64,000 nt of DNA from the NCBI GenBank assembly GCA_027262695.1, contig GCA_027262695.1_4722.1; one strand, given 5' to 3'. A program made the position numbers and the translations under genes. Positions 2,985 through 62,617 of this stretch are shown in pieces. Position 1 is the stretch's first letter. Each line of letters begins with the position of its first letter. The notes under the pieces were generated by a model. It was not told where the DNA came from, made no database searches, and saw nothing but the letters and a program-made list of their open reading frames with translations. The DNA comes from a phage.

Positions 2985-3006
2985 AAACTCTCCTACACGG
3001 CATAAA

Positions 3007-3028
3007 AGCCTGCCCCGAAGGACAGGCT
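3007..3028 (-). terminator. rho-independent terminator hairpin with UUCG loop and T-run (minus strand)
   Basis: Minus strand reads AGCCTGTCC-TTCG-GGGCAGGCT followed by TTTTATGCCG; the same 31 nt recur at 61927 in the opposite orientation. Confidence 0.6.
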
Positions 3029-3041
3029 CATCATGATACTT

Positions 3042-3239
3042 TTAACCTTCCATCTTCAATGAGGGATGGTTGACGATATGTGCATGTTTGGTTGGGTCGT
3101 ACGACTGATAAGGGAAATAGCCATGCCATTGACGGCCTTGACATTTCGTACACAGGAACTGACCATCACGGCGTTGATGCTCGTAGGCCAGTTCAGTGCT
3201 ATCAACGTGACCGCAACGTTCGCAGATAAACAGCGACAT
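3042..3239 (-). CDS. small Cys-rich protein (CxxC...CxxC, zinc-ribbon-like)
   Basis: ORF track, 65 aa (MSLFICERCGH...CTKCQG); GGAG RBS; followed by the terminator at 3007. Confidence 0.55.
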   Translation of the reverse strand: MSLFICERCGHVDSTELAYEHQRRDGQFLCTKCQGRQWHGYFPYQSYDPTKHAHIVNHPSLKMEG

Positions 3240-3255
3240 AGCGCATCTCCATGGA

Positions 3256-4236
3256 TTAGAAAAGCAAGAAACCGCTGTTCTTCGCTTCCGCTACGGTTTC
3301 ATCACCCACCTTCGGTGCTTGTTGACGTGCGTTACGATGTTCAACAAAACGTTTTGCTTCGTCCGCGATTTGTTTGATAATACCCCCTAAACGATCGGTG
3401 CTTAATACGAACGATGTCGCTTCACGAATCGGGCTGCTTTCCGGCACAAAACCATCACAGCTATAAATAGCATTAACACCCATGACTTTCGTCGCGTCTT
3501 TCGGATACAACGTACAGAAAGCAATCGGGCTATCATGCTCTTTGGTCCACTCGTATCCCATGAACGTGTTCAATTCGGTGATGGTCGGTTCCAAACCGGT
3601 AACACGAGGATGGTTTAAGAAGTTCTCCAGATCAGCGCTATCCAAGCGACGGTTCTCACCAGAGAACAACACACAGAGTTGGCTGATAACGATCTGGACA
3701 TCCAGGTTAACGTCTTGCTCTGATTTTCCGTTTTCGCCATTCATGTGGTAGCTGACAATCACAGGACGTTTCAACCCTTCTGCGGCTGCCATCAGTCCTT
3801 TGAACGTACGGTCAGCATTGATGGTCTGACGTTCATCGTCAAAGGAGGCAACGATACAGCAAACAACACGCTCACCGCGTTCCAGCAGGTTAGCGACCAG
3901 CGCAGGGCCTGCAACGGAACCCGAACCACCGCTTAAGCTGAAGACGACGATGTTGAATTTACCTGGCGTATGCTTATTAAGAATACCTGGGATTTGTGAG
4001 CAGATCAGTTCAGCATTCTCATCGCGTTTCTTACCGGAACCATCAAGCTCGCGGCCTGCTGCATCTTTAAAGATGTAAATGTGATCATCGTCCAGTGCGC
4101 TATCACGTAGGTTAGCACGGCTGGTATCAACATACGTCATGCTGTGTAATCCTTTCGCGACTTCGCCTTCAAATGCTGAGCCGATTTCGCCACCACAACC
4201 ACCAACCGCCCAAATATGTACTTGGTTCTCTTGCAT
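3256..4236 (-). CDS. phuZ: tubulin/FtsZ-like GTPase, PhuZ-like phage tubulin
   Basis: 326 aa; N-terminal VGGCGGEIG resembles the tubulin GQCGNQIG loop and SGGSGSVAGP resembles the tubulin GGGTGSG signature; AGGAG RBS 6 nt upstream; size matches known PhuZ proteins. Confidence 0.65.
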   Translation of the reverse strand: MQENQVHIWAVGGCGGEIGSAFEGEVAKGLHSMTYVDTSRANLRDSALDDDHIYIFKDAAGRELDGSGKKRDENAELICSQIPGILNKHTPGKFNIVVFSLSGGSGSVAGPALVANLLERGERVVCCIVASFDDERQTINADRTFKGLMAAAEGLKRPVIVSYHMNGENGKSEQDVNLDVQIVISQLCVLFSGENRRLDSADLENFLNHPRVTGLEPTITELNTFMGYEWTKEHDSPIAFCTLYPKDATKVMGVNAIYSCDGFVPESSPIREATSFVLSTDRLGGIIKQIADEAKRFVEHRNARQQAPKVGDETVAEAKNSGFLLF

Positions 4237-4300
4237 GTGAACTCCTAACTTGATATGTATTTAACGCACAATGAATCTTTCTTTACTAAAGGGGTGACCC

Positions 4301-5143
4301 ATGGGTGCTATTGACTACAGTGTCGATCGTATCTGCCGTACAATACCGGCAGATATTCTACAGTATTGCTATATCGATCGTTACGATTGGCGTAACCGCT
4401 ATCCGCGTTCCGTTGAAGATATCATTACCGATTGGGTAATCCGTAAACGGGTTATCGGGGACATCGACATCTACGGGGGACTACAAACCGTTATCCCTCT
4501 TGATGATGCAGGCGTTACGATTGAAGAAGTCACCATTAACTGTTATGTTTTCCATATTCCGCTGGAAGCGACACAGGGACGTTACATCACGTCAGCCTTG
4601 TCGATTATCTCCGGAAGCGTGAATAACTACGGAATCAACTATAACGGTCAATGGGGGGCGTTCAACCAAACCCAGTTCCAACGTCAACTTTGCGGATGGA
4701 ACCCCGCAAGCAACGCATTGCAACAAGGAATGAATGCATTCGGTCCTGTGAACATCCTCAGTACCGCTAACGTTGACATCATCGCACCTAACACCATCAT
4801 GGTGAACAACGTCACACCGGTTCAATTCCCGTTGAGCTTACGCTGTTTCCTTGCCCATGATCCAGAACTAACCAACCTCAGCATGGAAGTCTGGAACGAC
4901 TTTTACAAGCTCTGTTTATACGCCACACAAAGTGACATCTATAACAGAACCGTTATTCGTCTCGATCGTGGTGTTACCGCACAAGGTCAAGAAGTCGGTG
5001 CATTCAAGGAATACATCGATCGCTTCGCTGATGCGGAAAACACCTACCAGGAATTCCTGAACGAGACGTGGGCAGGCGTTGCTGCATGGAACGACCCACA
5101 AACGAAACGTCGGGCAATACGTCTGCAAACCGGTTACTTCTAA
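4301..5143 (+). CDS. hypothetical protein
   Basis: ORF track, 280 aa; AGGGG RBS; transcribed divergently from the phuZ candidate. Confidence 0.6.
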   Translation: MGAIDYSVDRICRTIPADILQYCYIDRYDWRNRYPRSVEDIITDWVIRKRVIGDIDIYGGLQTVIPLDDAGVTIEEVTINCYVFHIPLEATQGRYITSALSIISGSVNNYGINYNGQWGAFNQTQFQRQLCGWNPASNALQQGMNAFGPVNILSTANVDIIAPNTIMVNNVTPVQFPLSLRCFLAHDPELTNLSMEVWNDFYKLCLYATQSDIYNRTVIRLDRGVTAQGQEVGAFKEYIDRFADAENTYQEFLNETWAGVAAWNDPQTKRRAIRLQTGYF

Positions 5144-5146
5144 AGA

Positions 5147-5668
5147 CTATGCCGCCTTTTCCAACAATGTTGGTTGAGGCGGTTGTTGTTTGAAAACCAC
5201 CATCATATCAGCAAACATCGCAGCCACAGTCCCTACGGACGTCGCTAACTGAATGCTCAATTCGACATCAGGTGGAAGACAATCAAAATGAACACCGTAT
5301 TGCGTATGTGTCTGTTCAACAACGATACGGGGAACGATCTTGCTCTTAACCGCATCGGTCATGAACAAACGTAAGAACGTTTCACCGTCTTCGCTATCCG
5401 TAAAGCGATACGCGTTACCAGAAAACTCGACGCTTGGCGTAACGATAAACTGCACGCGATCGTCAGTCGGATGGATATTTAGCCACCGTGCAACATCGTC
5501 CGTGTTAACGTTACGCATACTCAGCACGGTATACGCAAACAACGTATCATGGTGTTTAGAATAATGCAGTACATAAGCCGCATCTTTCTTTTTGTGAACC
5601 CCTTCATTGTATTCTATTGTCGTGTAGCCTGATTTATATAGCTTTACTTGCGGTTTCTCGCTCATCAT
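5147..5668 (-). CDS. hypothetical protein
   Basis: ORF 5147..5749 trimmed to the ATG that overlaps the upstream stop (ATGATGA). Confidence 0.5.
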   Translation of the reverse strand: MMSEKPQVKLYKSGYTTIEYNEGVHKKKDAAYVLHYSKHHDTLFAYTVLSMRNVNTDDVARWLNIHPTDDRVQFIVTPSVEFSGNAYRFTDSEDGETFLRLFMTDAVKSKIVPRIVVEQTHTQYGVHFDCLPPDVELSIQLATSVGTVAAMFADMMVVFKQQPPQPTLLEKAA

Positions 5669-5964: not shown

Positions 5965-5976
5965 GATCGATCCTCC

Positions 5977-6357: not shown

Positions 6358-6364
6358 CTACTGA

Positions 6365-8420: not shown

Positions 8421-8432
8421 CTCCCAAGTAAT

Positions 8433-8488: not shown

Positions 8489-8541
8489 AAATGAATAAGC
8501 AAAGCTGTAGAGATTTACTGCCGCTTTACCTCTCTTATCTA

Positions 8542-10024: not shown

Positions 10025-10135
10025 TACGTTGCCTTCCGCGGATATAATCATGAAGGTAATGTAGGTTTATTTTAATCTCCATTTCGCGATGATATGACAG
10101 TCTTTATTACGTTTACCATCTGAGGGAGCATGCTC

Positions 10136-11374
10136 ATGTCTTCTATTTTACAGGTGTTTAATGCGCATGCGGAAGGCATTGACATCGACGAGTATTTTGT
10201 TAATCAGGTTATCCGTTACGCAACACGCTTCCGTACGCAAGACCAAGAACACATGCGTTTTTTCGGTGGGGTTTTATTAGGCGTACAGAAAATCCGATTC
10301 ACAACAAGACATAACGATATGTGGTTTTCCGACGTCTTGATGATGGATGAAGAAAGCTTACGACGCGATTTAAGTAAACTACCTTTTTACAACACGCAAA
10401 CCAACCGTGTTGCGTCAAACGCGTTTAACCTTAGCTGCTGTTGGTTGCTTCATGCGATTTTCCACAGCAAACAGATCAAAAAAGAAAAGGTTCGTGAAGC
10501 CGGGATGCTTGCAGCAATGCAAGTCCTTCATTATAAATTCATTTGTGGCCTGGTGGCACGCCGTTATCCGTACAACGCTGATCCAGCGATTGCTATTAAG
10601 GCGTATGATGAGTTGACCCTCAAATCAGGCATCAAGCGCATGAACAGCTGGAACGAGTATATCGATGAACGCTGTAATGCCATCATTGCGCGTAACAGTA
10701 CCCACTTCAGTCGTTGGTCGACCTTAGAACCGGATAGCGTTGCTGAGCGTTTCGTACGTGACGTGAATACGGGGATTCGTAAAGTGATCAACCGTATCAC
10801 CGACACCTATTACGCGATGTATGAAGAAGGTAAGAAAATCGGCACGTCATCACAAACCGTAGAATTAGATGACGGTCTCGCTGTTCGCGACATTAAACGT
10901 AACGAAACCACCTACCGGCAATACCTGTTCGAAATCGCTTATGACCGAACAAGTTTCGTTAAACGCGAACTAATGGTGGTTATCCTCGACGTGCATCATA
11001 CAACCAACCTCCTGTCTCTTGAACGCGCATTAAGCTATATCAGCGCTAATGTAGAACGTCCAACGAAAGACGGAAAACAGGTCTCTCAAATGCTGCGGCT
11101 TGTAATGGAACATGCGATCGAATACATCATCTTGAATAAAGTCGATATGCGTGACTTAACGTTCTTATTCTACATGCGTAACGTCTACACGTCTAACCGT
11201 ACCAGCAACCCGAAACTGTTAGAACTTCGTAAGATCGGCTCTGAAGTCATTAAGAAAGCAACCAACGCAAGAAACGATGCTGAAGCAGCAGCAACCCGCA
11301 CCGGGGTCTTTCTGTATATCCTGCTTCGTGTGTTTAGTCGCAACTATTACGTTCGTCGTGCGATGTCACGGTAA
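10136..11374 (+). CDS. hypothetical protein
   Basis: ORF 10130..11374; second ATG preferred because of GAGGGAG RBS spacing. Confidence 0.6.
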   Translation: MSSILQVFNAHAEGIDIDEYFVNQVIRYATRFRTQDQEHMRFFGGVLLGVQKIRFTTRHNDMWFSDVLMMDEESLRRDLSKLPFYNTQTNRVASNAFNLSCCWLLHAIFHSKQIKKEKVREAGMLAAMQVLHYKFICGLVARRYPYNADPAIAIKAYDELTLKSGIKRMNSWNEYIDERCNAIIARNSTHFSRWSTLEPDSVAERFVRDVNTGIRKVINRITDTYYAMYEEGKKIGTSSQTVELDDGLAVRDIKRNETTYRQYLFEIAYDRTSFVKRELMVVILDVHHTTNLLSLERALSYISANVERPTKDGKQVSQMLRLVMEHAIEYIILNKVDMRDLTFLFYMRNVYTSNRTSNPKLLELRKIGSEVIKKATNARNDAEAAATRTGVFLYILLRVFSRNYYVRRAMSR

Positions 11375-11513
11375 AGTTTTACTGCCGTTGGTTATTATTT
11401 GAAGCATAGGGCTTCACCCAGGAGTACCATCCCTTTAAGCCATTTATCCTCTCCTGGTTAACTGTCGTTCTCTCACAGTGCTCGACAGACCAAAAATGCT
11501 CAGGCCCCATAGT

Positions 11514-11542
11514 CCTCCTCTGGGAATGGAACCCAGAGGAGG
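11514..11542. terminator. GC-rich hairpin CCTCCTCTGGG-AATGGAA-CCCAGAGGAGG, putative terminator
   Basis: Perfect 11-bp stem followed on the plus strand by CTATGTTTATT. Confidence 0.4.
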
Positions 11543-11562
11543 CTATGTTTATTATGCTGTCG

Positions 11563-11871
11563 TTAAAACTCAATTCGACCTTTTGTGGTAAATAATACAC
11601 CTCTTTGCCAACAGAAAAGATCCTCCGATTGCGCACATACACGAATACCCGCATCGAACAAATGTTTTGTTCTGGCGCTTAAACAATCTGAATCTTCTAC
11701 GTACAACAGAAGACGTTGACATTTATTCTGAATGCGTTCAACAAGAATGTTCTTATCGCTTAAAATAGAATGCGCGTTATCCGTTAAGTTATCGTCTGTT
11801 TCCAGCTGTTTAACAAGTTTGATTAAAATACGTAATTGCTCGAGTGTGTCATGATCAAGTGAATCGCCCAT
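11563..11871 (-). CDS. hypothetical protein
   Basis: ORF 11563..11883 (TTG start in track) trimmed to the ATG with a GAGGT RBS. Confidence 0.45.
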   Translation of the reverse strand: MGDSLDHDTLEQLRILIKLVKQLETDDNLTDNAHSILSDKNILVERIQNKCQRLLLYVEDSDCLSARTKHLFDAGIRVCAQSEDLFCWQRGVLFTTKGRIEF

Positions 11872-11953
11872 GGCGTACCTCAACGTTATACGTCGTTCGT
11901 ATTATAATACTTAGACTCCCCATCGGAATTAACGGGGAGTCTGCAAATCGTGC

Positions 11954-14185: not shown

Positions 14186-14235
14186 ATAAACTCCTCCGAT
14201 GGAGGGTGCTCGGCACCCTCCATCGTTGTATTACC

Positions 14236-19494: not shown

Positions 19495-19639
19495 AGATAA
19501 TTCCTTTATTACGGCATAGTAAGAAAACGGGTTACGCACACAGATTTAAGCATAATGGTAATATTTTACGTAATGCCTATGACATTGTGTCACGTGTGCA
19601 ATTATGTCATACAATTTCCTTAATTTAAGGAGAGTTATA

Positions 19640-22624: not shown

Positions 22625-22644
22625 CGTAAAAAAAAAAAATATTA

Positions 22645-22684
22645 CATCCTCCTTCCCTAGCCATCAGGCCGGGGAAGGAGGATT
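22645..22684. terminator. bidirectional rho-independent terminator
   Basis: ATCCTCCTTCCC...GGGAAGGAGGAT hairpin flanked by an A12 run upstream and a T-rich run downstream, between convergent genes. Confidence 0.6.
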
Positions 22685-22693
22685 ATGGTTTAT

Positions 22694-23646: not shown

Positions 23647-23688
23647 AGCGCTAACCCCAAAGGATAAAAATAAAACCGTAACATAGCC

Positions 23689-23719
23689 ACCACCGCAACC
23701 CCATGACAGGGCTACGGTG
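23689..23719 (-). terminator. possible terminator hairpin
   Basis: CCACCG...CGGTGG stem; on the minus strand a T-rich run follows after a ~14-nt spacer; weak. Confidence 0.25.
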
Positions 23720-23752
23720 GGGTTTATACAGAGAGACGAGTTAAATTACAAA

Positions 23753-25165: not shown

Positions 25166-25273
25166 CTTTTTAATTCCTACTCAACAAAAGGTTCATGTTC
25201 GACATCACGTGTCATGTATCCGTAGAATAATGAGTCCTGGTAAGCTTTTACATCAAAAGGCGGCATAAAAAGT

Positions 25274-25302
25274 ACCTCCTCACCCACAAGGGGCAAGGAG
25301 GT
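25274..25302 (-). terminator. terminator hairpin followed by TTTTTATGCCG (minus strand)
   Basis: Minus strand: ACCTCCTTGCCCCTTGTGGGTGAGGAGGT then ACTTTTTATGCCG; downstream of gene 25450..26259. Confidence 0.5.
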
Positions 25303-29524: not shown

Positions 29525-29550
29525 GAGCAGGGGCATAACGCCCCTTGCTC
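29525..29550 (-). terminator. terminator hairpin after the RNAP beta 3' exon
   Basis: GAGCAGGGGC...GCCCCTTGCTC; on the minus strand followed by ATTTATTTCG. Confidence 0.5.
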
Positions 29551-30651
29551 TTATTTGGCTTCGTTAAAATAAATATCAACGGCACGTTCCGTTGCGTAGA
29601 GAAGACCCAGATTCACGGTCCCTACCACTTCCGGTGAACCGATGATACGGTTAGCGATACTGGTGCCACTGAAGATAGCATCAAGGGTGTGCCCGTCTTC
29701 GGTTTTGTTCACACCATGACCCACGGAAGAGACAACGGATTTTGCCTGTGCTGCGAAGGTACCTTTATCCCCCATTCCCGCACCCAGGTCGTAACGCATG
29801 AAAATACGGATGGCGATCTGGTTCTCGCCTAACGGATTACCGTCTATTCTCACGTTACTGTTGTTGATGCGTCCCGTTGTTGCTTCGTTGAGTTTCAGTT
29901 CCTTAACGCGTTTAGCTCGCGCTTTATCCGCTTCACCCACAAGTGCTGCCATGGTTTCACTCATGTCTTCAATCTGGGCACGATACAACACATCGATCTG
30001 TACGACTTCACCATGCACGTCAGCCCGTGGGTTATACTGACTCATACGGCGTAACGCTTCAACCGCTTCCTGACTTTCATCGCTCAGATCGGTCGCAATC
30101 GGTTCTTCCAGTGTTGCCAGGATCGTCCGAGGTTCAACATGATCGCCGATTTTCACCAAACCACGAATGTTGAGATGAGCGTCAACAATGAGCGTACGAC
30201 TCTTAATCGATGGTGTTACGAGACGATCAGCGAGATTGTCGAAGATATACGAACTGTCCTCGTGCGTTTCTGGAATATCCAAAATACCAACCAAAGACAG
30301 AACGCCTGCGCGCCAAACCACCTGACCTGGGTTCCACCAATCCCGTTTGAAATAAAGACGATGGAATACCACTACATCCTGATCCTTAACGCGATCACCA
30401 ACTTTATAATCGGTAATGAGATCGTGAGGATAATACTTACCTGGTCCTTTCCCGATTATCGTACCGAGTTGGAAAACCTCTTCCCCTAATTCTGGATCGT
30501 CGTATTGTATCGTAAGCGCTGTTTTGGTGACCTTCTTCACAACACCATCGCCTTGAGCAGCTGCTGCGAAGAGTTTACCAACACGATGCGCGATAACAGT
30601 CTCACCACCTGTACGCCATGGTTGTACGTCGTAACCTTCAGCAGCTATCAT
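29551..30651 (-). CDS. RNA polymerase beta-subunit segment, 3' exon (GDK catalytic-region motif)
   Basis: 366 aa ORF; ...YDLGAGMGDKGTFAAQAKSVVS aligns to the E. coli rpoB GDKMAGRHGNKGVIS region, and IGDHVEPRTILATL / PRADVHGEVVQIDVLY align to upstream rpoB segments; the frame stays open upstream to a stop at 30796..30798, so the exon probably starts between 30652 and 30795. Confidence 0.6.
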   Translation of the reverse strand: MIAAEGYDVQPWRTGGETVIAHRVGKLFAAAAQGDGVVKKVTKTALTIQYDDPELGEEVFQLGTIIGKGPGKYYPHDLITDYKVGDRVKDQDVVVFHRLYFKRDWWNPGQVVWRAGVLSLVGILDIPETHEDSSYIFDNLADRLVTPSIKSRTLIVDAHLNIRGLVKIGDHVEPRTILATLEEPIATDLSDESQEAVEALRRMSQYNPRADVHGEVVQIDVLYRAQIEDMSETMAALVGEADKARAKRVKELKLNEATTGRINNSNVRIDGNPLGENQIAIRIFMRYDLGAGMGDKGTFAAQAKSVVSSVGHGVNKTEDGHTLDAIFSGTSIANRIIGSPEVVGTVNLGLLYATERAVDIYFNEAK

Positions 30652-31148
30652 GCGGTTGTGCTGTATACCTATAAATACGAGACGCTTTGGCGAAATCCAG
30701 CAAAATACAATTACTGTGCGTCTAGATTGTTCAGATAAGGTCGTTAATCTTATCCCGGTGGTGATGATAGGTGCATCACCAACCCGCTTGCGCTCTCACG
30801 CAAGAGCAGACTATATCACATCTCGTTTCAAACGGTGCTTCTTCAGCGCCTCAACGAGAGTTCACTTCTTCCCAGCGCATCCAGCGCCATTCTCTTATCC
30901 AAGGAGAATGCCTCACTCGAGGGGTACAGGGGGATGAATCCCTTAGTCGTTGAACCGTCACCCTAGAACGTTTCACAACGATCCTTAGGCGATTGGCTGC
31001 GGATTGTCCTTAAGCTATTATCTGTTTTATAACCATACCGTCTTTCTTTTCAGAATCCGTTTTGGTCGATAACAGCGATGGATGTCTTCGCAATTCAGTG
31101 AATCTCATCTACATGTCGCCATATAGACGGACCCTGCTATTAAAAGCG
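30652..31148 (-). ncRNA. group I self-splicing intron (boundaries approximate) in the RNAP beta gene
   Basis: Minus strand carries an R-like element GGTTCAACGACTAAGGGATT (30956..30937) and an S-like element TGATATAGTCT (30818..30808) that can form P7 (GACTA/TAGTC), followed by a P9-like hairpin (30806..30786); no ORF >60 aa in the correct orientation. Confidence 0.55.
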
Positions 31149-34100
31149 TTAATCATCTCTGTCGGCAGCAGGTACTGCAAGTGCCGATGTACTCATTATT
31201 GACGAGCTACCATCCGTTTTCTCGTCGTAAGGTTTTGTTTCACCGTATACAGACACGATGTTTGCGTTAGGTGCAAGATAAGCAGAGATACCTACATCGC
31301 CACTGTCCTTCGTACCTTCAGATACCACACCGATGTCTGACTTGTCGTATTCACGATCGCGTGCGCGTCGAAGCGATGTTTTCGAACGACCCCCGATACC
31401 GGTCATCGTTGCTTCTTCACCCTGCTTGATATCCAACATCGGGTTGGTTTCATCGATGACAATAGAAGCACTGTCGTCAAGGATTTGGTTCCAAACGCTC
31501 ACCGGACTGATTGAGATCTTCTGTCGGTTGCCTTGGCTGCTGTTCTCGTTTTGACGAATAGCACCAACCAGATCCTTATACACCAACTCAGCGAACTTAT
31601 CGTACGTTTTGAAGCGCTGGTAGTTCACATCGTTCGTGTTCGGTGCCCAATCATCCAGAAGCAGTTCAACAGCACGTAATAACAACATGGCGAAATCAGT
31701 CGGTTCACCCATGTTCTGCAATAATGTACGACTTACCGGGTCGACGAAAAGACGCTCCATGAGTTCAAGTTCGCGAAGATGACGAACCTTAAGACCTGCA
31801 CCATCGACAACGTTAAAATAGATATCCCGATTGTCAAAAGCGCCGCGAGCGTAACCGATGTAATTACGGTATTCGTTAAATCCACCCAACAACAATGTCG
31901 TCATTCGATCATCTTTACTGAAGATCAAACTTTCATCGTCGAAGCTTACCGCGAATTCATCCGATGCTAAGCCCATACGAGAACCACGAACTACCGTACG
32001 GTAGTTCGCTTTAAGATGTTCTAATAACGGAGTAAGTCCGCCTAGGTAACTTAGCACAACGCCAACCGGGATACGTACGCCCATGAACTCAAGGTCAGCG
32101 GCTTCGATAGGCATCTTCGCGGCATTGATACCGAAGAAATCAGGGAACGTTCCAACCGGCGTTGGGGTTTGATTCGGTTCGTAAACGTACAACTGATTCT
32201 GATTATCCACCGCCAGGAATTCACCGTTGGTGTTTTTGGCGAACGTTAAGAATCCACCCGCCAGCTGTTCGGTGAACAAATCTGCGCCGATATGTTCTGG
32301 CAACGTTTTGATATCGAGGCGTATGTCCCAATCCGCAAATTGAATTTGGGTGTAGTTACGCGCAAGCACAGCGAAGTAATACGGAACTTTGACAGCCGGA
32401 TCAAAGACGTTACCACGTTTTAAGGTGGTTAGCGGGGAGGTTTTATCGTAATACATCGCTGTGAGTTGACGTGTTAACCAACGACCAGCATTATTCACGA
32501 CACGCTCTGAACGTTTAACAAACACCTTACCGTAGGCGGTACTCAACGCAACTTCGGATGATGATACCTTTCTGATAGGTTTATCAACACGTTGTTTACG
32601 CATCCGGTATTTAATACCGTTAACGACATAAATACCGTCCTTACGAACCTTCGGTAACATCACCGGGAACGTCGTTGGAACACCACCCACCGGAGCCAGC
32701 TTGATCGTGATGACCTGGTAATCACCCATCACGTCAACAACATCTTCAACTTTATATCCGGTAACAGGATAGCCTGCTTGTTGCACTGCCACAACGGCCG
32801 CTGCGATGTCCTTTTGCATCACGTGTTCAACGTAATGTTTATCCCACACCGCAAGCGTCGATTTACATAGGCTCTTATCGACGATAACATCCGCTTCCGG
32901 CATAACCTTTGCTGGCGCTAATTTCGCGGCTTTTGGTTTAACCTCAACGTATTCAGCAAGCGTTAGTCCAGAACCGTCAGGTGCTTCAATTTCATGAATC
33001 GCGTCAGCGTTACGCATCGCGGCTTTATATTGAACGCCGCTTAATTGACCCGCATCCGCGAGGTCGCTCGCACGTACCAACACCGCATCGGATAACGACT
33101 GAATATATTCACCGTGCGTTTTCGGCAACGTTGCCGCATCGAAGACATCATCTTTTTCTTCCGGCACGTCGTCGTTGACGACCTCAAAGAGATCATCGGT
33201 GATGTCTTGATCTTCGTCCGGTTGAAAATCGGGCTGAACTTCAACGCCCGGGACTTCACGAACATCTTCGAACGCACGCTCAACAACCGCGTTCCATGCT
33301 TCAGCGTCGTCATCCTCATCCGATCCTCCGATCAACTCGCTTTCCAGTTCATCGGGGTCAAGAACGGTATCGAGATCCTCACCGTTAGGAAGCACGACAT
33401 CACGTTCATCGTACTCCGCATCGGGACTGTCTGCGAGAATATCACGCTCCTGACGAAGAACCTGCTCCTCTTCTTGTTTCTGTTCTTCTTCGTTGGCGCT
33501 CTGCGACCACAGACGGGTTACCGCCATCATCCAACGACGCTGGAATGTTTCAAGCGTTGTCTTATCAAGTTCCTCGCCTTCCTTCGCCAAACCCGAACGC
33601 CATTCTTCCATTAAACCAAGATTCAGGGTAAAGAAATAGACGCCGTCCGTAAATACAACGTTAAGCTTATCCAGCGAAGCACGATCCAATGACGCCATCG
33701 TACTGTTCTCACGATCGACACCTAACCAGCGGAAGAAGTCAAAGAACGACAGCTCCTCTGAGGTGGCAAAATTCATGAGGTTATTACGGGTTGGGGCTTG
33801 TTGTGTCGTACGCATCAACGATATCTTCGGTAACGTCGACGGGATACGGAATAACAAGAACTGCTGACGGTCGCTTTGCTTGGCGATCTCGTTTGCTTGC
33901 GTCCAAATCGTTTTACGCACGTTGAACCACTCATCATACCAACGTGTTAGCGTCGGACGATAGATGTACATGTGGTTAAGATGCGCATAGTTAGCCACGA
34001 TCTGGGCGTTGATGTTCTTCTCAACCTTGCTAAGATCGGTGACCAAACGAAAACGACGATGCGATGCACGGTAATCCAGTTTCGCACGCGGTAGCTGAAA

Positions 34101-34358
34101 TCGCTGATCGCGTCGAGGCGCGCCTTGCTTGGTTGCGAGGTCATCCGCGAACGATATCCAAAGCTGTGCACTTTCTTTGCTCAGCATGTATTCGTTTTCA
34201 GGAGGACCTATTAACGAAGGATCGGTTGCTGTGTAATGATAAACAGCATAACGCGGCAGCTGCAAAAGCTGCACCAAACGCAATCTAGGTGATAATAACT
34301 CTTGATAACGTCGTACACCGAATTGTCTGTAGTAATCAAGGTATTTAAGTTTTGCCAT
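31149..34358 (-). CDS. RNA polymerase beta-like subunit, N-terminal and middle part (5' exon), with a long N-terminal extension
   Basis: 1069 aa; C-terminal region NPMLDIKQGEEATMTGIGGRSK...VSVYGETKPY aligns to the rpoB fork segment [26 protein letters not shown]...LSVYAQTNEY; own ATG with a GGAG RBS; acidic low-complexity insert. Confidence 0.65.
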   Translation of the reverse strand: MAKLKYLDYYRQFGVRRYQELLSPRLRLVQLLQLPRYAVYHYTATDPSLIGPPENEYMLSKESAQLWISFADDLATKQGAPRRDQRFQLPRAKLDYRASHRRFRLVTDLSKVEKNINAQIVANYAHLNHMYIYRPTLTRWYDEWFNVRKTIWTQANEIAKQSDRQQFLLFRIPSTLPKISLMRTTQQAPTRNNLMNFATSEELSFFDFFRWLGVDRENSTMASLDRASLDKLNVVFTDGVYFFTLNLGLMEEWRSGLAKEGEELDKTTLETFQRRWMMAVTRLWSQSANEEEQKQEEEQVLRQERDILADSPDAEYDERDVVLPNGEDLDTVLDPDELESELIGGSDEDDDAEAWNAVVERAFEDVREVPGVEVQPDFQPDEDQDITDDLFEVVNDDVPEEKDDVFDAATLPKTHGEYIQSLSDAVLVRASDLADAGQLSGVQYKAAMRNADAIHEIEAPDGSGLTLAEYVEVKPKAAKLAPAKVMPEADVIVDKSLCKSTLAVWDKHYVEHVMQKDIAAAVVAVQQAGYPVTGYKVEDVVDVMGDYQVITIKLAPVGGVPTTFPVMLPKVRKDGIYVVNGIKYRMRKQRVDKPIRKVSSSEVALSTAYGKVFVKRSERVVNNAGRWLTRQLTAMYYDKTSPLTTLKRGNVFDPAVKVPYYFAVLARNYTQIQFADWDIRLDIKTLPEHIGADLFTEQLAGGFLTFAKNTNGEFLAVDNQNQLYVYEPNQTPTPVGTFPDFFGINAAKMPIEAADLEFMGVRIPVGVVLSYLGGLTPLLEHLKANYRTVVRGSRMGLASDEFAVSFDDESLIFSKDDRMTTLLLGGFNEYRNYIGYARGAFDNRDIYFNVVDGAGLKVRHLRELELMERLFVDPVSRTLLQNMGEPTDFAMLLLRAVELLLDDWAPNTNDVNYQRFKTYDKFAELVYKDLVGAIRQNENSSQGNRQKISISPVSVWNQILDDSASIVIDETNPMLDIKQGEEATMTGIGGRSKTSLRRARDREYDKSDIGVVSEGTKDSGDVGISAYLAPNANIVSVYGETKPYDEKTDGSSSIMSTSALAVPAADRDD

Positions 34359-34548: not shown

Positions 34549-35198
34549 TTCGCCTCAGTTCGCTACGCTGAGACCGCCTGCATGGATACGTACATGACAG
34601 GCTGCTTGCACTTTCATGCAAGAGGAGACTATATCAAACCGGCAGCTTCACCTTCTCGATCGTATCGAGAATGCGGTGCTGAAGTATTCTTCAGCAGCAC
34701 CTGCTACGGTAACCTACACTTCGAAGACGCTTGTCCTCTACAGGGTGGTAAATCCCTTAGTCGTTGAACCTGCGTTGTTTCCCATTCTTGGTTGCAAGAA
34801 TGCCGTATTACTACGCAACAACCAGGCTGCTGATTGCCCATTGTCTCGCACCTTAGCACCGCTTACGCGGCTTTTCTTTCAGCCTAAGCCTCTTACGGAG
34901 GTAGTGCATCTCAACTGTTGTTTCTGCCTTTCGGCACCCCATGGGTCGTTGAGCTTTAGGGGTTCCCAGCAATTCGTAGGTTTTTCAAGCACTCCCTTTC
35001 GGGAATACCGGACAACTTCCCTTGAAAAAAGTCTTTATTTTTCAAGGACTTATCCCCGCCGAGTCCCTGGAGGTACGGGCTCGGAATGCAAACCGTTTCT
35101 ACGAACGATGCTTTTTGTTTCCAATCAGGGTATTCCCATGCGATATATCGTTCGTCAGTAATCGGTTCCCAATTACTATCAAGTTCTGTCTTGGGAGA
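34549..35198 (-). ncRNA. group I self-splicing intron (boundaries approximate) in the RNAP beta-prime gene
   Basis: Minus strand carries R-like GGTTCAACGACTAAGGGATT (34770..34751), S-like TGATATAGTCT (34636..34626) and a P9-like hairpin (34622..34605) that shows a compensatory pair change relative to the other intron. Confidence 0.55.
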
Positions 35199-43363: not shown

Positions 43364-43411
43364 TCATTAGTTCGGGGTGGGGAATCCCCACCCCCTTCTT
43401 GAGGAATGGTA

Positions 43412-45554: not shown

Positions 45555-45570
45555 TATTCGCCGCATAGAA

Positions 45571-45602
45571 CCCTCCTCCAACCCGTAAGGGAAGGAGGAG
45601 GG
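45571..45602 (+). terminator. terminator hairpin CCCTCCTCCAACCC-GTAA-GGGAAGGAGGAGGG
   Basis: Long GC stem with a GNRA (GTAA) tetraloop followed by TTTATGTT; the identical 32-mer recurs at 58419..58450. Confidence 0.6.
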
Positions 45603-45608
45603 TTTATG

Positions 45609-46676: not shown

Positions 46677-46758
46677 CACGTCCTCCTGAAAAAGAAAAAA
46701 GAAATACGGCATAAAGCCTACCCACACAATGGTGGGTAGGCTAAGATCAACATCGATG

Positions 46759-53773: not shown

Positions 53774-53781
53774 CATAATAA

Positions 53782-53817
53782 CCCACCCTACTACCCCGTT
53801 AAGGGCGGTAGGGTGGG
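53782..53817. terminator. bidirectional terminator hairpin
   Basis: CCCACCCTAC...GTAGGGTGGG 10-bp stem with inner CCCCGTTAAGGG, between convergent genes; T-rich run follows on the plus strand. Confidence 0.55.
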
Positions 53818-53824
53818 ATAAGGT

Positions 53825-54256
53825 TTATTTGCTGTATAGCTGTACCACTCGTTGTGTCGTAGGAACGCAGACTCTTACCAGAAGCTTTTTAATCTCCTGA
53901 CGAATCGTTGCTTTATCATCATAATAAAGCCATGGTGGAACGCGTTGCATTATGCGCTGCACGGCTTCATCGTAGTTCGTCGTCTCATTGAGTAACGTCT
54001 CACTATCCAGATCTTTCCATGCAGTAATACCAAGCCGCGCAGCAAACATCAGCGCTGAAACTGACTCCGCTATCTCCAGTCGCTCATTCATATCCGCAAG
54101 ACCTTTTAGCATGATGTAATTATCATCGTGCCGATGTAAGGTACCAAACAAACTTCCAAAGAGGAGGATGCGTTTGGCTTTTGCGGTTAAGAGGAACGAC
54201 AGGAGAGCGTGTTTCAACGGTTGTTTCTCACGTTCTACCTGTTCGACCATCTCCAT
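53825..54256 (-). CDS. hypothetical protein
   Basis: ORF track, 143 aa. Confidence 0.55.
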   Translation of the reverse strand: MEMVEQVEREKQPLKHALLSFLLTAKAKRILLFGSLFGTLHRHDDNYIMLKGLADMNERLEIAESVSALMFAARLGITAWKDLDSETLLNETTNYDEAVQRIMQRVPPWLYYDDKATIRQEIKKLLVRVCVPTTQRVVQLYSK

Positions 54257-54259
54257 TGA

Positions 54260-56442: not shown

Positions 56443-57783
56443 ATGATTAATATTTTTGGTTTTTATACGTACAAAGGGTACGCTAATAACCACCCAAAAA
56501 CCACGGCGAAATTCGGTGAGTTCAGTCAGCACAGTGCTACGTTCAGTCGCGAGATCGGCATCTATACCAACACGGCGTACGCACGTACGACCTTATTAGT
56601 GTTGAATGCAGAAAACGAAGCTGGTGAGGCACAAACGCTGGATGACGACACCGCAGGCCGCATTCTTCAGGTTGGTCAATGGTTGCTGGAAAAAGCCTCA
56701 TCGGGCGAAATCCAGGAAGACAGAGACCAAGTTATCAGCTACCTAAAAGACGACTTCACAACGTATCTTGATTCTATCGACATCCCAACACCCACCACCG
56801 ATGGGAAAGTCTATCTACCGGCGTGGATCAGTTTCAAGATAACAGCCACCGGCGATGTTGTCAAGATTTGGTTGTCTGATAGCGTATTCCAAAGTCAATA
56901 TCCAAAATACGAATATGAAGTCGTTCCTCCTGTTCCTAAGGATCAGTTAGATACCTTCTTCGAAGATCTGGCAACATTGAAGAAACTGGTTGACAGTCGA
57001 AGCAGCGAGAAACTGACCGAAGAAATCAACGAGGTGCGCGACCAATTCCCAGACACACAATTGTGGACGAAAACCTATAAAGCGTACGATTACACCGACG
57101 ATTCGAAATACATTAATACCGATTGGACGGTGATCATCTACGGTGCGGCAGGTAACAACATTGATAATATCAAGGAGTTCCTGCAAAACTGGGTTCTTAG
57201 CAACAGCACGCACGGACGTCCAGACTGGGAAATCGTTCTGCCGGATCTTTTTATTCCGACGGAACACATCTTCATCCCAATCTGGAACCGCCACAGCGCC
57301 CCGGAAATGACCAATCAGGCACGTATCTATAGTCCTATCTTCGATGATTCGTTGATGGATACCTACCTGAAAAACTTTGCTGATGGTTACGGTGAAACCA
57401 CCGAAGTCCGTAAATCGCTTCAAGCTGTGCCGACGTTGTGGCGCTCGATCGGTTTCTTAAGCGTTGGTAACTCACGTAACCGTGACGGTAAGCTTAAGTT
57501 CTACGATCGCTGGCCGCAATACGCACTTATCAGCACAACCAGTATCGACATTAACCGTATCGACGATGCGACACGTGAATTCATCACCTTCACTTACGAA
57601 ATGCTGAAACTGGCAGAATCGCTCACCGAAGACGATCCAGTACCGTTGGGCTATAGTCGTGTTACGCGTGGCAGCAATAGCTTCTTAGCGAAAAGCCACA
57701 ACGATGTTCAGTATCTCTTCTTAACAAAAGAAGCGTTCCTGAAGAAAATGCCGGATGAAGCCGACACACCTGTTGGAGGTTGA
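56443..57783 (+). CDS. hypothetical protein
   Basis: ORF 56407..57783 trimmed to the Met (MINIFGF) with a GAGGA RBS. Confidence 0.6.
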   Translation: MINIFGFYTYKGYANNHPKTTAKFGEFSQHSATFSREIGIYTNTAYARTTLLVLNAENEAGEAQTLDDDTAGRILQVGQWLLEKASSGEIQEDRDQVISYLKDDFTTYLDSIDIPTPTTDGKVYLPAWISFKITATGDVVKIWLSDSVFQSQYPKYEYEVVPPVPKDQLDTFFEDLATLKKLVDSRSSEKLTEEINEVRDQFPDTQLWTKTYKAYDYTDDSKYINTDWTVIIYGAAGNNIDNIKEFLQNWVLSNSTHGRPDWEIVLPDLFIPTEHIFIPIWNRHSAPEMTNQARIYSPIFDDSLMDTYLKNFADGYGETTEVRKSLQAVPTLWRSIGFLSVGNSRNRDGKLKFYDRWPQYALISTTSIDINRIDDATREFITFTYEMLKLAESLTEDDPVPLGYSRVTRGSNSFLAKSHNDVQYLFLTKEAFLKKMPDEADTPVGG

Positions 57784-57785
57784 TT

Positions 57786-58412
57786 ATGGCTGTAACACGC
57801 ATGACGCCAAGTCCCGGTGCGGTCGGGGTATTCACAGTATCAGCGCCGTTCTCCGTTGGTGCATCGACGTTATATACCGTTACAGCGTTGCGAAGATTCA
57901 GCGAAGTCATCGGTAGTGGAATCGATCTATTTACGGAACTATACGAACCGTTATCGATAGACAAATCCACTTTCGAAGCGCATCTTGAAGCAAATGCTTA
58001 TCTCGTCACGTTACAGCCGGATTATGGTGCGCCAGTACTGGTACCAGATACGTATATCACGTCGTACCCAAAGAACGATTCCTTACGGTATCGCCGCATT
58101 ATTCTGGGTATTGATTTCGGGCCTCTTCCTCCCGGTCTTGACCTTTCGTATTTAACAACGATATTGAAAGGTAAAGCCAGTGATATTCTTGGTGTCGAAC
58201 CTGAAGTTAAAACGATGGAAATCACTCTCGATGATACCGTTACTCAGGAACAACATCAGATAAACGAAGCCCGTCGTCAGGCTGCGATAAAAGAGCGAGA
58301 TACCATTTACGCACGCTGTGAAACACAAGAGAAGCAGATAACGGCTTTACTTGCAACCCAAAAGCAACTTATCAAATTGCTTCAAGACGCCGGAATCAAT
58401 CCGACACCTTAA
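57786..58412 (+). CDS. hypothetical protein
   Basis: ORF 57780..58412 (TTG start in track) trimmed to the ATG after a GGAGGT RBS. Confidence 0.55.
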   Translation: MAVTRMTPSPGAVGVFTVSAPFSVGASTLYTVTALRRFSEVIGSGIDLFTELYEPLSIDKSTFEAHLEANAYLVTLQPDYGAPVLVPDTYITSYPKNDSLRYRRIILGIDFGPLPPGLDLSYLTTILKGKASDILGVEPEVKTMEITLDDTVTQEQHQINEARRQAAIKERDTIYARCETQEKQITALLATQKQLIKLLQDAGINPTP

Positions 58413-58418
58413 CATATT

Positions 58419-58450
58419 CCCTCCTCCAACCCGTAAGGGAAGGAGGAGGG
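58419..58450 (+). terminator. terminator hairpin, exact copy of the 45571..45602 element, followed by CTATGCCGTAAAG
   Basis: Identical 32-nt CCCTCCTCCAACCCGTAAGGGAAGGAGGAGGG directly after the stop of gene 57786..58412. Confidence 0.5.
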
Positions 58451-58481
58451 CTATGCCGTAAAGCAAAAAAAAAAAATGATA

Positions 58482-58514
58482 GTCACGAGCCCTCCAATGA
58501 AGGAGAGCCGTGAC
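58482..58514 (-). terminator. rho-independent terminator for minus-strand gene 58522..59223
   Basis: Minus strand: GTCACGGCTCTCC...GGAGGGCTCGTGAC hairpin followed by a T13 run. Confidence 0.55.
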
Positions 58515-58521
58515 CGTCAGT

Positions 58522-59223
58522 TTAGGATGCGGATAATCTAGCGTACTTTTGTCGAATATGGTTCTTACGGCGAACTTCGTCATCCTCGTCGCGCCATTCG
58601 AGGTAAGCTACGAATCGCCGTAACTGCGCTGCAGTCATTGTTGCTGACAGATCTTCTATTTCTAAAACAACATAGTGAACTTCGCCGACACCATCGCAGT
58701 CAGTATAACGGAATACCAAAAGATCCTTATCATATTCCGTGATAATAACCTTGAATCGTTTCTCGAACAAATAAAACAGTTCCGATTCGATAATCATCGG
58801 GATAACACAATTATCGTCACGTTCAATGATTTTCATCATCACACGTAACGCACGAAGCGCGTGATGGGCGAACGAACCATTAAATCGTTGATTCATTGCT
58901 TGTCCCACATCAACGATCTTTGTTCCTGGCCAGGGACGGATTACTGATTTCGGTGGTGTAAGACGGCAGCGGTACGCTTGTATAAACAACAGAATATCGG
59001 CGACATTAGGAAATTCTTCCTGGTCTTTGTACAGCTTACGGATAATATCCGGGATCGTAGTCAACAAATATTTCCTATCGCCTCCTACTTTCTCGAGATT
59101 AGCGATATGCCCTTCTACCACTGGCTGGTAAACGAAATTATACCAGTGGTGGTATTTTGCAACGTGTTGGTATTTCGGGATGAAATTAAGAACAGCGTTC
59201 ACTGCGCGTTTTAATGGGTTCAT
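58522..59223 (-). CDS. hypothetical protein
   Basis: ORF track, 233 aa. Confidence 0.6.
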   Translation of the reverse strand: MNPLKRAVNAVLNFIPKYQHVAKYHHWYNFVYQPVVEGHIANLEKVGGDRKYLLTTIPDIIRKLYKDQEEFPNVADILLFIQAYRCRLTPPKSVIRPWPGTKIVDVGQAMNQRFNGSFAHHALRALRVMMKIIERDDNCVIPMIIESELFYLFEKRFKVIITEYDKDLLVFRYTDCDGVGEVHYVVLEIEDLSATMTAAQLRRFVAYLEWRDEDDEVRRKNHIRQKYARLSAS

Positions 59224-59237
59224 CAGAAGAATCCTTC

Positions 59238-60190: not shown

Positions 60191-60291
60191 TGATATCTCC
60201 TCTTCATACGCATCTTGAAGATTAGTTAAAATCAACAAAAGAAAAAACGATATAAAGCAAGGTCCTCTGATATCAGAGGACCTTGGATCAA

Positions 60292-60948: not shown

Positions 60949-61098
60949 GATTGAAATCTCGCTGGCTTACTTCACTTAAGTAATATAGCCGTGAAAAATG
61001 TTGGATTAAGTTAAATACCGCAACCGCAGCTAATTTTATAGGCTTTTAGCCTAAACCAATCATCTTCGGAATCATCATCTTTGAAACAGGAATCTATC

Positions 61099-61920
61099 AT
61101 GGAAAAAGTATTTGTTTGTAAGTTGTTTACCAACGGCAATAGCCAACCAATGTATCTGACCGATCCTGTTCTAGGTAATCGGAACAGTACCGTATTCAAA
61201 GAGGCTTTCGAATACGCTAAAAATAAAGCCGTGAGAACACTGACGTCTGATGACTGTATCGACGGTATCACGTGGGCAGAGTTAATCGGTGATGCCGTTC
61301 GACACTTCGTTCGGGATGCGAGAAAACGGGAAATCTGTCTCACGACTATTGTTGTGCGTGAAAACGCAGAAATTTTATCAAACGTTTTGGTTGATTTTAA
61401 TGACGTTTGCGTGTTTAATCCAGAGAACACGTTTGAACAATACCTTACTGCCCTGAACAACCAGCTCGGTAAAGATATTCATCCCGAATTCGCCAAGTTA
61501 ACGTATCAAGTGCTTTTTAACGACGTCGATCCAAACACAAAGATCAACACCAGCTTATCGCCCCTGGTAAAGAAATACGGATCGGTTCTTGCTACGGCAA
61601 CACCCACCACCGATGGCGGTTATGATATCGAATTGGATGGTCCATTAAAAGAACAAGAACCTACTGGGATTCGGGCGGTACATCACAACCTCGTCGTTAA
61701 ATCTGATGGATGCGATGAACATTACGCTATGATAAACGATGAAAACAATTACCGTTTAAGTCAAGCGATTGGTGTTCTACGCTATACCGAACCCACTGTT
61801 GTAGACGATTATACATCGACAACAACACACACCACGTGTTTCATTTTCATCTATCCCAATGAAAGTGTATACATTACCGACTGCTATGGCAATACCGTAG
61901 ATAGCTTACGTCGTTATTAA
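61099..61920 (+). CDS. hypothetical protein
   Basis: ORF 61081..61920 (TTG start in track) trimmed to the first ATG (MEKVFVCK). Confidence 0.55.
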   Translation: MEKVFVCKLFTNGNSQPMYLTDPVLGNRNSTVFKEAFEYAKNKAVRTLTSDDCIDGITWAELIGDAVRHFVRDARKREICLTTIVVRENAEILSNVLVDFNDVCVFNPENTFEQYLTALNNQLGKDIHPEFAKLTYQVLFNDVDPNTKINTSLSPLVKKYGSVLATATPTTDGGYDIELDGPLKEQEPTGIRAVHHNLVVKSDGCDEHYAMINDENNYRLSQAIGVLRYTEPTVVDDYTSTTTHTTCFIFIYPNESVYITDCYGNTVDSLRRY

Positions 61921-61926
61921 TCATCA

Positions 61927-61952
61927 AGCCTGTCCTTCGGGGCAGGCTTTTA
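61927..61952 (+). terminator. rho-independent terminator, UUCG-loop hairpin plus T4, followed by ATGCCGTTAAA
   Basis: AGCCTGTCC-TTCG-GGGCAGGCT then TTTTATGCCG; identical to the reverse complement of the 3000..3028 region. Confidence 0.65.
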
Positions 61953-62019
61953 TGCCGTTAAATAACTGGAATAAGAATTAACAAAATAGGAAAATGGTGT
62001 GAATATAACACAAAGGAGG

Positions 62020-62136
62020 GAGATGATTATGTTACTCATTCTAATGGAGAGAGCATTGCTGGCGGGTATCTGCGCATTCTCTGTTAAACACGCTGTTACT
62101 ATCATGACTGAAGAAAGGCGTAATACGCATAATGTA
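62020..62136 (+). CDS. candidate small hydrophobic peptide (38 aa)
   Basis: AAAGGAGGGAG RBS 8 nt before the ATG at 62020; MLLILMERALLAGICAFSVKHAVTIMTEERRNTHNVLR; below the ORF-track size cutoff; stop lies within a CGTAATAC/GTATTACG palindrome. Confidence 0.3.
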
Positions 62137-62255
62137 TTACGCTGAAAACAATGTCTGCATTAGTGTATGACGAGAAATCGTCGAGGCCCCCGTCTTCACG
62201 AGGGCCAACACCTATGCATGATTATTCATCGTCTGTTAAACAAAAGGTTATAAAC

Positions 62256-62564
62256 ATGAGCAATTTGAACGTTGAATTTACTTCAACAACGCCTGTCATG
62301 AATGGTGTTGGCACTGAAACCAAAATCGTATTAGAACCCATTCCAGGGTTACGCGATCTCGGTGATTTTTATCAACTGATGCCGCGTATACGGAAGGCCT
62401 TAAACAGTATCGATCTTGATTCTAATAAAGATTTCCAACACGATACAGAAAATACCGATCATGTATTGCTGCCATCAGGGATCGCAAAATTCACCTACAC
62501 GCAAACATTGAAAGCCTCCGATGGTGAAATCCGTCGTTTTATCGTTGAAGTAGAAAGCGCATAA
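62256..62564 (+). CDS. hypothetical protein
   Basis: ORF 62151..62564 trimmed to Met 36 (MSNLNVE) with an AAAGG RBS; the upstream part may be 5' leader. Confidence 0.45.
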   Translation: MSNLNVEFTSTTPVMNGVGTETKIVLEPIPGLRDLGDFYQLMPRIRKALNSIDLDSNKDFQHDTENTDHVLLPSGIAKFTYTQTLKASDGEIRRFIVEVESA

Positions 62565-62568
62565 AAAC

Positions 62569-62600
62569 CATCCTCCCGACCCGTAAGGGAAGGGAGGATG
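62569..62600 (+). terminator. terminator-family hairpin CATCCTCCCGACCC-GTAA-GGGAAGGGAGGATG followed by AAATATGCCGTTAAACG
   Basis: Same CCCGTAAGGGAAGG core as the 45571 and 58419 elements; lies between convergent genes. Confidence 0.45.
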
Positions 62601-62617
62601 AAATATGCCGTTAAACG

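Follow-up and report, generated by a model that had tools for sequence, protein, structure and literature searches.

The 64,000-nucleotide (nt) stretch of phage DNA analysed here (contig GCA_027262695.1_4722.1 of GenBank assembly GCA_027262695.1; hereafter the window) carries between its genes a family of GC-rich hairpins, many of them followed by a short tail containing TATG, and these hairpins and their tails are our subject. Pieces of 9 kilobases (kb) and 25 kb from the window match only Escherichia phage vB_EcoM_Goslar (Goslar), at 93% and 87% nucleotide identity, and the two sequences are collinear, with window position 1 at approximately Goslar 177,581 and window 58,443 at Goslar 17. Goslar is a nucleus-forming jumbo phage of E. 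coli (Goslarvirus), placed in the Chimalliviridae by the papers cited below. Its annotation assigns to this region the PhuZ tubulin, terminase, tail sheath, several RNA polymerase beta-subunit genes and many structural genes; collinearity with Goslar, and the RNA polymerase beta-subunit genes and PhuZ in this region, indicate that the source phage has both a virion and a non-virion multisubunit RNA polymerase. Several of the hairpins are labelled “putative terminator” in the Goslar record, and we added the remainder of the Goslar genome for genome-wide statistics.

We listed strong hairpins on both strands of the window and of Goslar using a stem finder, and folded the candidates. A first-pass annotation, made from the sequence alone, had reported a 32-nt hairpin identical at 45571 and 58419 with a variant at 62569, and a hairpin with a UUCG loop at 61927 recurring as an exact inverted copy at 3007, and all of these hold: the 32-nt hairpin CCCTCCTCCAACCCGTAAGGGAAGGAGGAGGG stands without a mismatch at both 45571-45602 and 58419-58450, and shuffles gave no match; the variant CATCCTCCCGACCCGTAAGGGAAGGGAGGATG occupies 62569-62600; and the UUCG hairpin AGCCTGTCCTTCGGGGCAGGCT is exact at 61927-61948(+) and 3007-3028(-), and never arose in shuffles. 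The exact 32-mer was found only in three Goslar-like viral contigs, at one to four places in each and always with TATG tails, in a scan that did not extend to bacterial genomes. Folded as RNA, the hairpins have energies of -17 to -30 kcal/mol (z-scores -3.7 to -6.2). Their stems have a pyrimidine-rich 5' arm and a purine-rich 3' arm (CCCTCCTCC…GGAGGAGGG and variants), a composition shared with the phiKZ motif discussed below, and this is what gives the arms the real likeness to Shine-Dalgarno (SD) and anti-SD strings that the first pass had noticed.

The stems vary in a way that preserves pairing. Sixteen copies of the 32-nt family comprise the stem types CCCTCCTCC/GGAGGAGGG, CCCTCTCCC/GGGAGAGGG, CATCCTCCC/GGGAGGATG and CCTTCCTCC/GGAGGAAGG; pairing holds in 97.9% of cells, compensatory double changes occur at five pairs (27 cells), and the covariation score was reached by 0 of 500 shuffles. 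Between window and Goslar, orthologous hairpins carry compensated changes at 45571, 25274 and 23690 and an inverted centre at 58419, with TATG retained always. Among loci with a single incoming strand, that is, one on which a gene runs into the hairpin, the RNA hairpin is more stable on the incoming strand at 37, and the reverse holds at 15 (sign test, p = 0.003), the trace expected of G-U pairs that become C-A mismatches when the other strand is read. These patterns are evidence of selection on the structure, acting at the RNA level.

After five of the hairpins (3007, 25274, 58419, 61927 and 62569) the first pass had noted a TATGCCG box, often inside a T-run, and had proposed to judge it by its frequency and positional bias. 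All five boxes are present, a sixth unit at 46707-46742(-) had been overlooked, and the copy at 45571 is followed by TTTATGTTAA and not by TATGCCG; the T-run is actually one to four T or A preceding the box. TATGCCG is not globally enriched in the window: the two strands together hold 12 copies where 7.2 are expected, and 6 of 100 shuffles contain at least as many. Its link to hairpins is nonetheless strong: half of the 12 copies sit 1-6 nt past a strong intergenic hairpin, at 2998-3004(-), 25261-25267(-), 46707-46713(-), 58452-58458(+), 61951-61957(+) and 62604-62610(+), although only 0.23% of strand positions qualify (binomial p = 1.4e-13).

The same link emerges for TATG alone. In the window TATG lies within 13 nt past the stem on 15 of 37 intergenic hairpin strands against 3 of 85 coding ones (background 2.5%; Fisher p = 6e-7), and in Goslar on 54 of 143 against 9 of 230 (background 2.7%; Fisher p = 2e-17). 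In a motif-free count TATG was the most enriched 4-mer in the tails (14/24 against 0.54 expected in the window, 42/79 against 1.9 expected in Goslar), and TATGCCG the top 7-mer in Goslar hairpin tails. Aligned on TATG, the tails give the consensus (T/A)-T-TATG-C/T-C/T-G-T, with G never directly before TATG and a stem-to-TATG spacer of 0-8 nt (mode 1-2). TATGCCG, which the first pass had taken as the unit, is the commonest form of this broader TATG-YYGT tail (Y, pyrimidine). Tails such as CTATGCCG, TTTATGCC and AAATATGC hold two to four T and fall short of a canonical U-tract, taken as at least five T among the eight nt right after the stem; the 3007 hairpin escapes a T-run scan, and a few other hairpins (22646- and 58481-) do carry T12 runs.

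The tail tracks the end of an incoming gene on the same strand, being present at 42 of 79 hairpin strands with such a gene and 12 of 64 without in Goslar (p = 3e-5), and at 14 of 24 and 1 of 13 in the window. It does not depend on a gene to follow: at incoming ends in Goslar the tail occurs in 23 of 34 hairpins without a following same-strand gene and in 19 of 45 with one, and no same-strand gene lies downstream of 9 of the 14 window tails and 23 of the 42 Goslar tails. The first pass had suggested checking whether plus-strand genes follow every copy; for two of the five copies it cited (58419 and 62569) the next gene is on the minus strand. At 11512, 45571, 58419 and 62569, where genes converge, both strands of the palindrome are tailed with TATG, the opposite-strand tails having been missed at first, and at the unidirectional sites 3007, 23690, 25274, 46715 and 61927 the tail is on one side only. 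This context pattern is the one predicted for terminators, not promoters.

A terminator of this design has been described in phiKZ, which belongs to the same phage family and likewise has two multisubunit RNA polymerases and a phage nucleus. ONT-cappable-seq (ONT, Oxford Nanopore Technologies) mapped 133 termination regions in phiKZ, and 61 terminators share the motif 5'-BCCYCCCCHWWDGGGRRGGBYTTATKYYGT-3', in which a “TTAT region” comes after a hairpin (Putzeys et al., 2024; PMC10914365); its counterpart in phage 201phi2-1, “motif A”, closely resembles it and has terminator activity in vivo in reporter constructs (PMC11512511). Like both, the window units consist of a GC-rich hairpin, its 5' arm rich in C/T and its 3' arm in G/A, with TTAT-G/T-Y-Y-G-T after it; as in phiKZ, they lie after gene 3' ends, with bidirectional versions tailed on both strands between convergent genes. 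The window tail TTATGCCGT fits the phiKZ TTATKYYGT exactly. The window versions differ from the phiKZ motif in their longer stems (9+3 bp with a 2x2 internal loop, or 9-12 bp), in a stem-to-TATG spacer that ranges over 0-6 nt and in a preference for CCG after TATG; the host is E. coli, and the sites here are known from sequence alone.

The published phiKZ start and end tables (bioRxiv version of the Putzeys paper) allowed us to place mapped RNA 3' ends on the phiKZ sequence. T059 and T021 end after TAT, T046 after TATGC, T065 after TATGT, T011 and T057 after TATGTT, T051 after TATGTC and T060 after TATGAC. With ends running from TAT to TATGYY, the 3'-terminal bases of the RNA therefore come from the box, and the conserved G-T follows just after the RNA end; the junction is a pyrimidine followed by G. 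In the bidirectional pairs T059/T060 and T051/T052, each strand has a tail and a mapped end. We also scanned for the tail in other phages, sampling 50 kb each of SPN3US, EL and Ea35-70, 100 kb of phiKZ and the whole of Goslar. It follows 18 of 57 incoming intergenic hairpins in phiKZ and 9 of 19 in Erwinia phage Ea35-70, the latter with a nearly identical tail, TTATGCCGN, and is essentially absent in AR9 (0/16) and T4 (1/15).

We conclude, with a probability of about 0.85, that the hairpins with TATG tails are factor-independent (intrinsic) terminators of a type conserved in phiKZ-like nucleus-forming jumbo phages, because the sites follow gene ends, the stems covary, stability is asymmetric between strands through G-U pairs, and the anatomy is that of the mapped phiKZ and 201phi2-1 terminators. 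They represent, in the Goslar lineage, a terminator family known from those two phages, and many of them are bidirectional. The first pass had read the hairpins as terminators, which these observations bear out, and had offered three options for the box: part of the terminator, RNA processing site or late-promoter element. The first is favoured, as the tail tracks incoming transcription strand by strand and phiKZ 3' ends fall inside the box.

In the mechanism that we propose, a phage multisubunit RNA polymerase would pass the gene end and its RNA would fold into a very stable hairpin with the pyrimidine-rich 5' arm and purine-rich 3' arm, often with a GNRA or UUCG loop or a 2x2 internal loop. 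The following 7-10 nt, (T/A)1-4-TATG-Y-Y, would form a short, weak terminal RNA-DNA hybrid in place of a U-tract, and release would occur at approximately the junction between TATGYY and G; between convergent genes, a palindrome with a tail on both strands would stop transcription from both sides. We infer that the hairpin and the short weak hybrid (UUAUGYY) release the transcript, and that the conserved TATG and the Y-G junction act as a pause or release signal for the polymerase. Multisubunit polymerases have a general pause preference that resembles a Y-G junction with a G-rich 3' arm upstream. By analogy with phiKZ, RNA ends would form at these sites in the window phage, with a predicted end of …UAUGCC immediately before G.

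These units resemble canonical bacterial Rho-independent terminators in their stable GC hairpin, short weak A/U-rich hybrid, bidirectional palindromes and predicted release 5-9 nt past the stem. Unlike in canonical terminators, the U-tract is replaced by two to four T and then ATG-CC, the release point is closely followed by a conserved G-T, and the reader is probably the phage polymerases inside the phage nucleus, not the host enzyme. For Goslar-like phages, a main E. coli model for phage-nucleus biology, the result would be a ready map of transcription-unit ends with predicted release points, an aid to annotation and engineering. More broadly, a hairpin-plus-TATGYYGT terminator appears to be common to Pseudomonas, Erwinia and Escherichia phages with weakly similar proteins, and is missing in some relatives.

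Several observations weigh against this interpretation. A window scan with the literal 30-nt phiKZ consensus, allowing three or fewer mismatches, returned 0 matches, and a fixed-spacing tail pattern occurred 4 times against 3.3 expected, which is not significant. Neither scan yields a significant result, because the window stems are longer and stem length and spacer vary, and membership in the family therefore rests on architecture and tail sequence, not on a fixed-length string. Among chimalliviruses, EL has the tail only weakly (4/18), and SPN3US, where T-runs are used, has next to none of it (2/25); the tail is therefore not required by the polymerase family as a whole. Approximately 40% of hairpins at incoming gene ends have T-runs or other tails and no TATG, and the terminator reading does not account for TATG-YYGT in place of a plain T-run; in addition, one TATGCCGT stands without a hairpin in a promoter-like position at 19512(-). 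The ONT 3' ends resolve to approximately 2 nt and may include trimmed ends. A literature search for a Goslar transcriptome found none, and termination at the window sites is hence a deduction.

It is possible, if doubtful, that the tail is in addition a sequence-specific polymerase signal, the pocket of a beta-like subunit that reads non-template TATG at late promoters also reading TATG in the elongation bubble. The tail and the phiKZ late promoter share the same four bases, equally strictly conserved, in phages of the same family; unlike the promoters, the tail has a hairpin upstream and YYGT downstream, follows gene ends, and stands on both strands at convergent sites. With a shared reader, the enzyme would be held at the U-G or Y-G junction 4-8 nt past the hairpin, termination would be specific to phage polymerases, and a single four-base element would signal a start where no hairpin precedes it and a stop where one does. 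The uneven spread of the tail among chimalliviruses (present in Goslar, phiKZ and Ea35-70, absent in SPN3US) would then follow polymerase specificity. The invariant core of the tail is the only known promoter element of the non-virion polymerase, and whether the same four bases serve start and stop bears on how a 4-bp motif gives promoter specificity. In NusG-dependent pausing and termination in Bacillus and Mycobacterium, a T-rich motif in the non-template strand is read by a factor. We know of no factor that reads the window tail; the reader here would be the polymerase itself, and the parallel is an analogy only.

Among rival explanations, the one that survives best, unlikely as we judge it, is that these are terminator-promoter couples, in which the hairpin stops upstream transcription and the TATG of the tail is the late promoter of the non-virion polymerase for the next gene, with transcription starting at G. 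The first pass had correctly pointed to a TATG motif at phiKZ late promoters, whose consensus is TATG with a start at G and where each single substitution strongly lowers transcription (PMC4666361). The geometry fits at co-directional sites: the box at 3001-3004(-) lies 17 nt before a start codon with AGGAG, and that at 46710(-) approximately 35 nt before a start. The hairpin-less TATGCCGT at 19512-19518(-), which precedes a structural gene by 20-24 nt within a divergent spacer, is conserved in Goslar (approximately 197100) and is the only place where the box sits like a promoter; other divergent spacers have sense-strand TATGs 35-45 nt upstream of genes, and the phiKZ late start P049 directly follows a hairpin.

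As a general reading, a promoter function for the box fails. Although the tails have the TATG core, many have no same-strand gene to drive and the tail is commoner where none follows, and at convergent pairs, tailed on both strands, a promoter would drive antisense transcription of the gene opposite. In Goslar's 24 divergent promoter-bearing spacers TATG is enriched only 1.5-fold, and without YYGT, against approximately 20-fold in hairpin tails. Of the 27 phiKZ late starts covered here, 26 lack a hairpin immediately upstream, and the exception, P049, starts at a second TATG; P016, P054 and P006, 20-30 nt downstream of a terminator tail, each have their own separate TATG, and the early promoters P001, P017 and P028 lie approximately 40 nt past such tails. 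The late starts covered use other TATGs, and thus the terminator TATG is not their usual start site. The model phiKZ promoter P119L has no upstream hairpin, and published promoter logos show no conservation past TATG, where the terminator tail has YYGT. A dual role may exist at some co-directional sites, such as 3001-3004(-).

Less probable still is that the unit is an RNA processing or stability element, the box being a cleavage or trimming site, the hairpin protecting the 3' end, and the mapped ends being processed ends. The single-stranded, A/U-rich tail adjoining a stable stem would suit such a role, and ONT-mapped phiKZ 3' ends alone cannot separate termination from processing. Against it count the 201phi2-1 terminators, which terminate in a two-reporter assay in uninfected cells and are strongest where sequence motifs co-occur (PMC11512511), the conserved G-T beyond the mapped RNA end, which points to a signal at the level of DNA and polymerase, and ends 5-9 nt past the stem, the geometry of intrinsic terminators. 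The box may nonetheless have an RNA-processing role.

We consider it very improbable that the hairpins are a mobile or DNA-level palindromic repeat, of the repetitive extragenic palindrome (REP) or miniature inverted-repeat transposable element (MITE) kind or a cruciform or recombination or replication signal, lying between genes by chance. Identical 32-nt copies at unrelated loci, recurrence of the exact sequence within each of the three Goslar-like genomes, and orthologous loci that switch stem type or invert their centre between close relatives, suggesting copy-to-copy exchange, would all suit a repeat of this kind. However, identity stops at the hairpin, with unrelated flanks and no target duplications, as it would not in a REP/MITE-like family; the G-U strand asymmetry favours an RNA role on the transcribed strand; unidirectional sites have a tail on one side only; positions are tied to gene ends; and terminator function has been demonstrated experimentally for the related motif. 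Two smaller ideas were rejected: a hidden ribosome-binding site (purine arm plus ATG) with a mini open reading frame (ORF) ATG-CCG-TAA at 58453 and 19517, since frames after the ATG are inconsistent among copies, and a simple extension of the palindrome (CATA…TATG), since at 58419 the two sides do not align in register and the upstream CATA is missing from unidirectional sites.

The family also differs between close relatives at individual loci. Compared with Goslar 224384 and 237246, the hairpins at window 45571-45602 and 58419-58450 differ in stem type or have an inverted centre (AACCCGTAAGGGAA vs TTCCCTGATGGGTT) within conserved flanks, and a similar switch is seen between Goslar 93445 and two further sequences, in phages approximately 90% identical. 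Such sequence comparisons suggest copy-to-copy replacement or flipping of the palindrome centre, that is, concerted evolution of a terminator family. The identical copies belong to a small set of stem types that selection keeps alike, and copy-to-copy replacement probably adds to this.

Table 1. Predicted terminators, related hairpins and the hairpin-less box in the window
Feature	Position	Strand	Elements	Context
Unidirectional terminator	2998..3028	-	Hairpin 3007-3028 (UUCG loop, one G-U pair) + TT + TATGCCGT (2998-3004)	Between Goslar gp235 and gp236 homologues; next start codon 2984; Goslar orthologue annotated putative terminator
Bidirectional terminator	11508..11547	both	Hairpin 11512-11543; TATG 11544-11547(+), 11508-11511(-)	Convergent genes 10130-11374(+) and 11563-11883(-)
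Bidirectional terminator	22628..22687	both	Hairpin 22646-22683, -30 kcal/mol; + strand TATGGTTTAT (22684-22687); - strand classical T12 run	After tail-tube homologue
Unidirectional terminator	23682..23720	-	Hairpin 23690-23720 (-24.2 on -, -13.3 on +) + TGGC + TATGTTACG	
Unidirectional terminator	25261..25302	-	Hairpin 25274-25302 + ACTTTT + TATGCCGCC	After head-maturation-protease homologue
Bidirectional terminator	45564..45608	both	Exact 32-nt hairpin 45571-45602; TATG 45605-45608(+) (TTTATGTTAA), 45564-45567(-) (CTATGCGGC)	Convergent genes
Unidirectional terminator	46707..46742	-	Hairpin 46715-46742 + T + TATGCCGT	100% identical in Goslar
Bidirectional terminator	53774..53830	both	Hairpin 53782-53817, -28 kcal/mol; tails TTATTATGTTATTTTTT (-), ATAAGGTTTATTT (+)	Annotated terminator in Goslar
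Bidirectional terminator	58413..58458	both	Exact 32-nt hairpin 58419-58450; TATGCCGT at 58452(+), TATGTTAAG at 58413-58416(-)	Convergent genes 57780-58412(+) and 58522-59223(-)
Unidirectional terminator	61927..61957	+	UUCG hairpin 61927-61948 + TT + TATGCCGTTAAA	
Bidirectional terminator	62560..62610	both	Hairpin 62569-62600; TATGCCGTTAAA at 62604(+), TATGCGC at 62560-62563(-)	Convergent genes 62151-62564(+) and thymidylate-kinase homologue 62618-63259(-)
Terminator-like hairpin, classical U-tract type without TATG	58463..58515	-	Hairpin 58481-58515, then T12 run	
Further box-less intergenic hairpins	11912-11943, 14197-14225, 29525-29550, 43374-43394, 60253-60290			
Box without hairpin	19512..19518	-	TATGCCGT	Divergent spacer, approximately 20-24 nt upstream of the start of the Goslar gp219 homologue (structural gene)

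One further TATGCCG, at 5148-5154(+), lies 5 nt past the stop codon of gene 4301-5143, has no hairpin before it and overlaps the end of the facing gene. At window 58451-58520 an A12/T12 run lies between two hairpins (58419-58450 and 58481-58515), and the ends of the linear Goslar GenBank record fall at exactly this spot.

The window also contains two group I introns. One, at 30787-31153(-) (Rfam RF00028, 51 bits), lies between ORFs 29551-30651 and 31149-34358, which together correspond to a single RNA polymerase beta-subunit gene, gp207, in Goslar; gp207 is uninterrupted there, and this intron is therefore present in the window phage and lacking in Goslar at that site. The other, at 34605-35037(-) (58 bits), occupies the position of Goslar Intron_gpI (211817-212245) and adjoins an ORF similar to phiKZ ORF179 (homing-endonuclease-like).

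Finally, TATATTAC occurs at window 24356, 47875 and 60980, always on the minus strand and preceded by an A-run and TTGAG-like bases (e.g., AAAAAAGTTGAGGTCTATATTACC). All three sites lie in spacers upstream of minus-strand genes, and they closely match the early promoters (virion polymerase) that the Putzeys tables give for phiKZ (…AAAAAAGTTTAAGATCTATATTAC…). Judged by this sequence match, they are probably early promoters that have been conserved in chimalliviruses of both Pseudomonas and E. coli.

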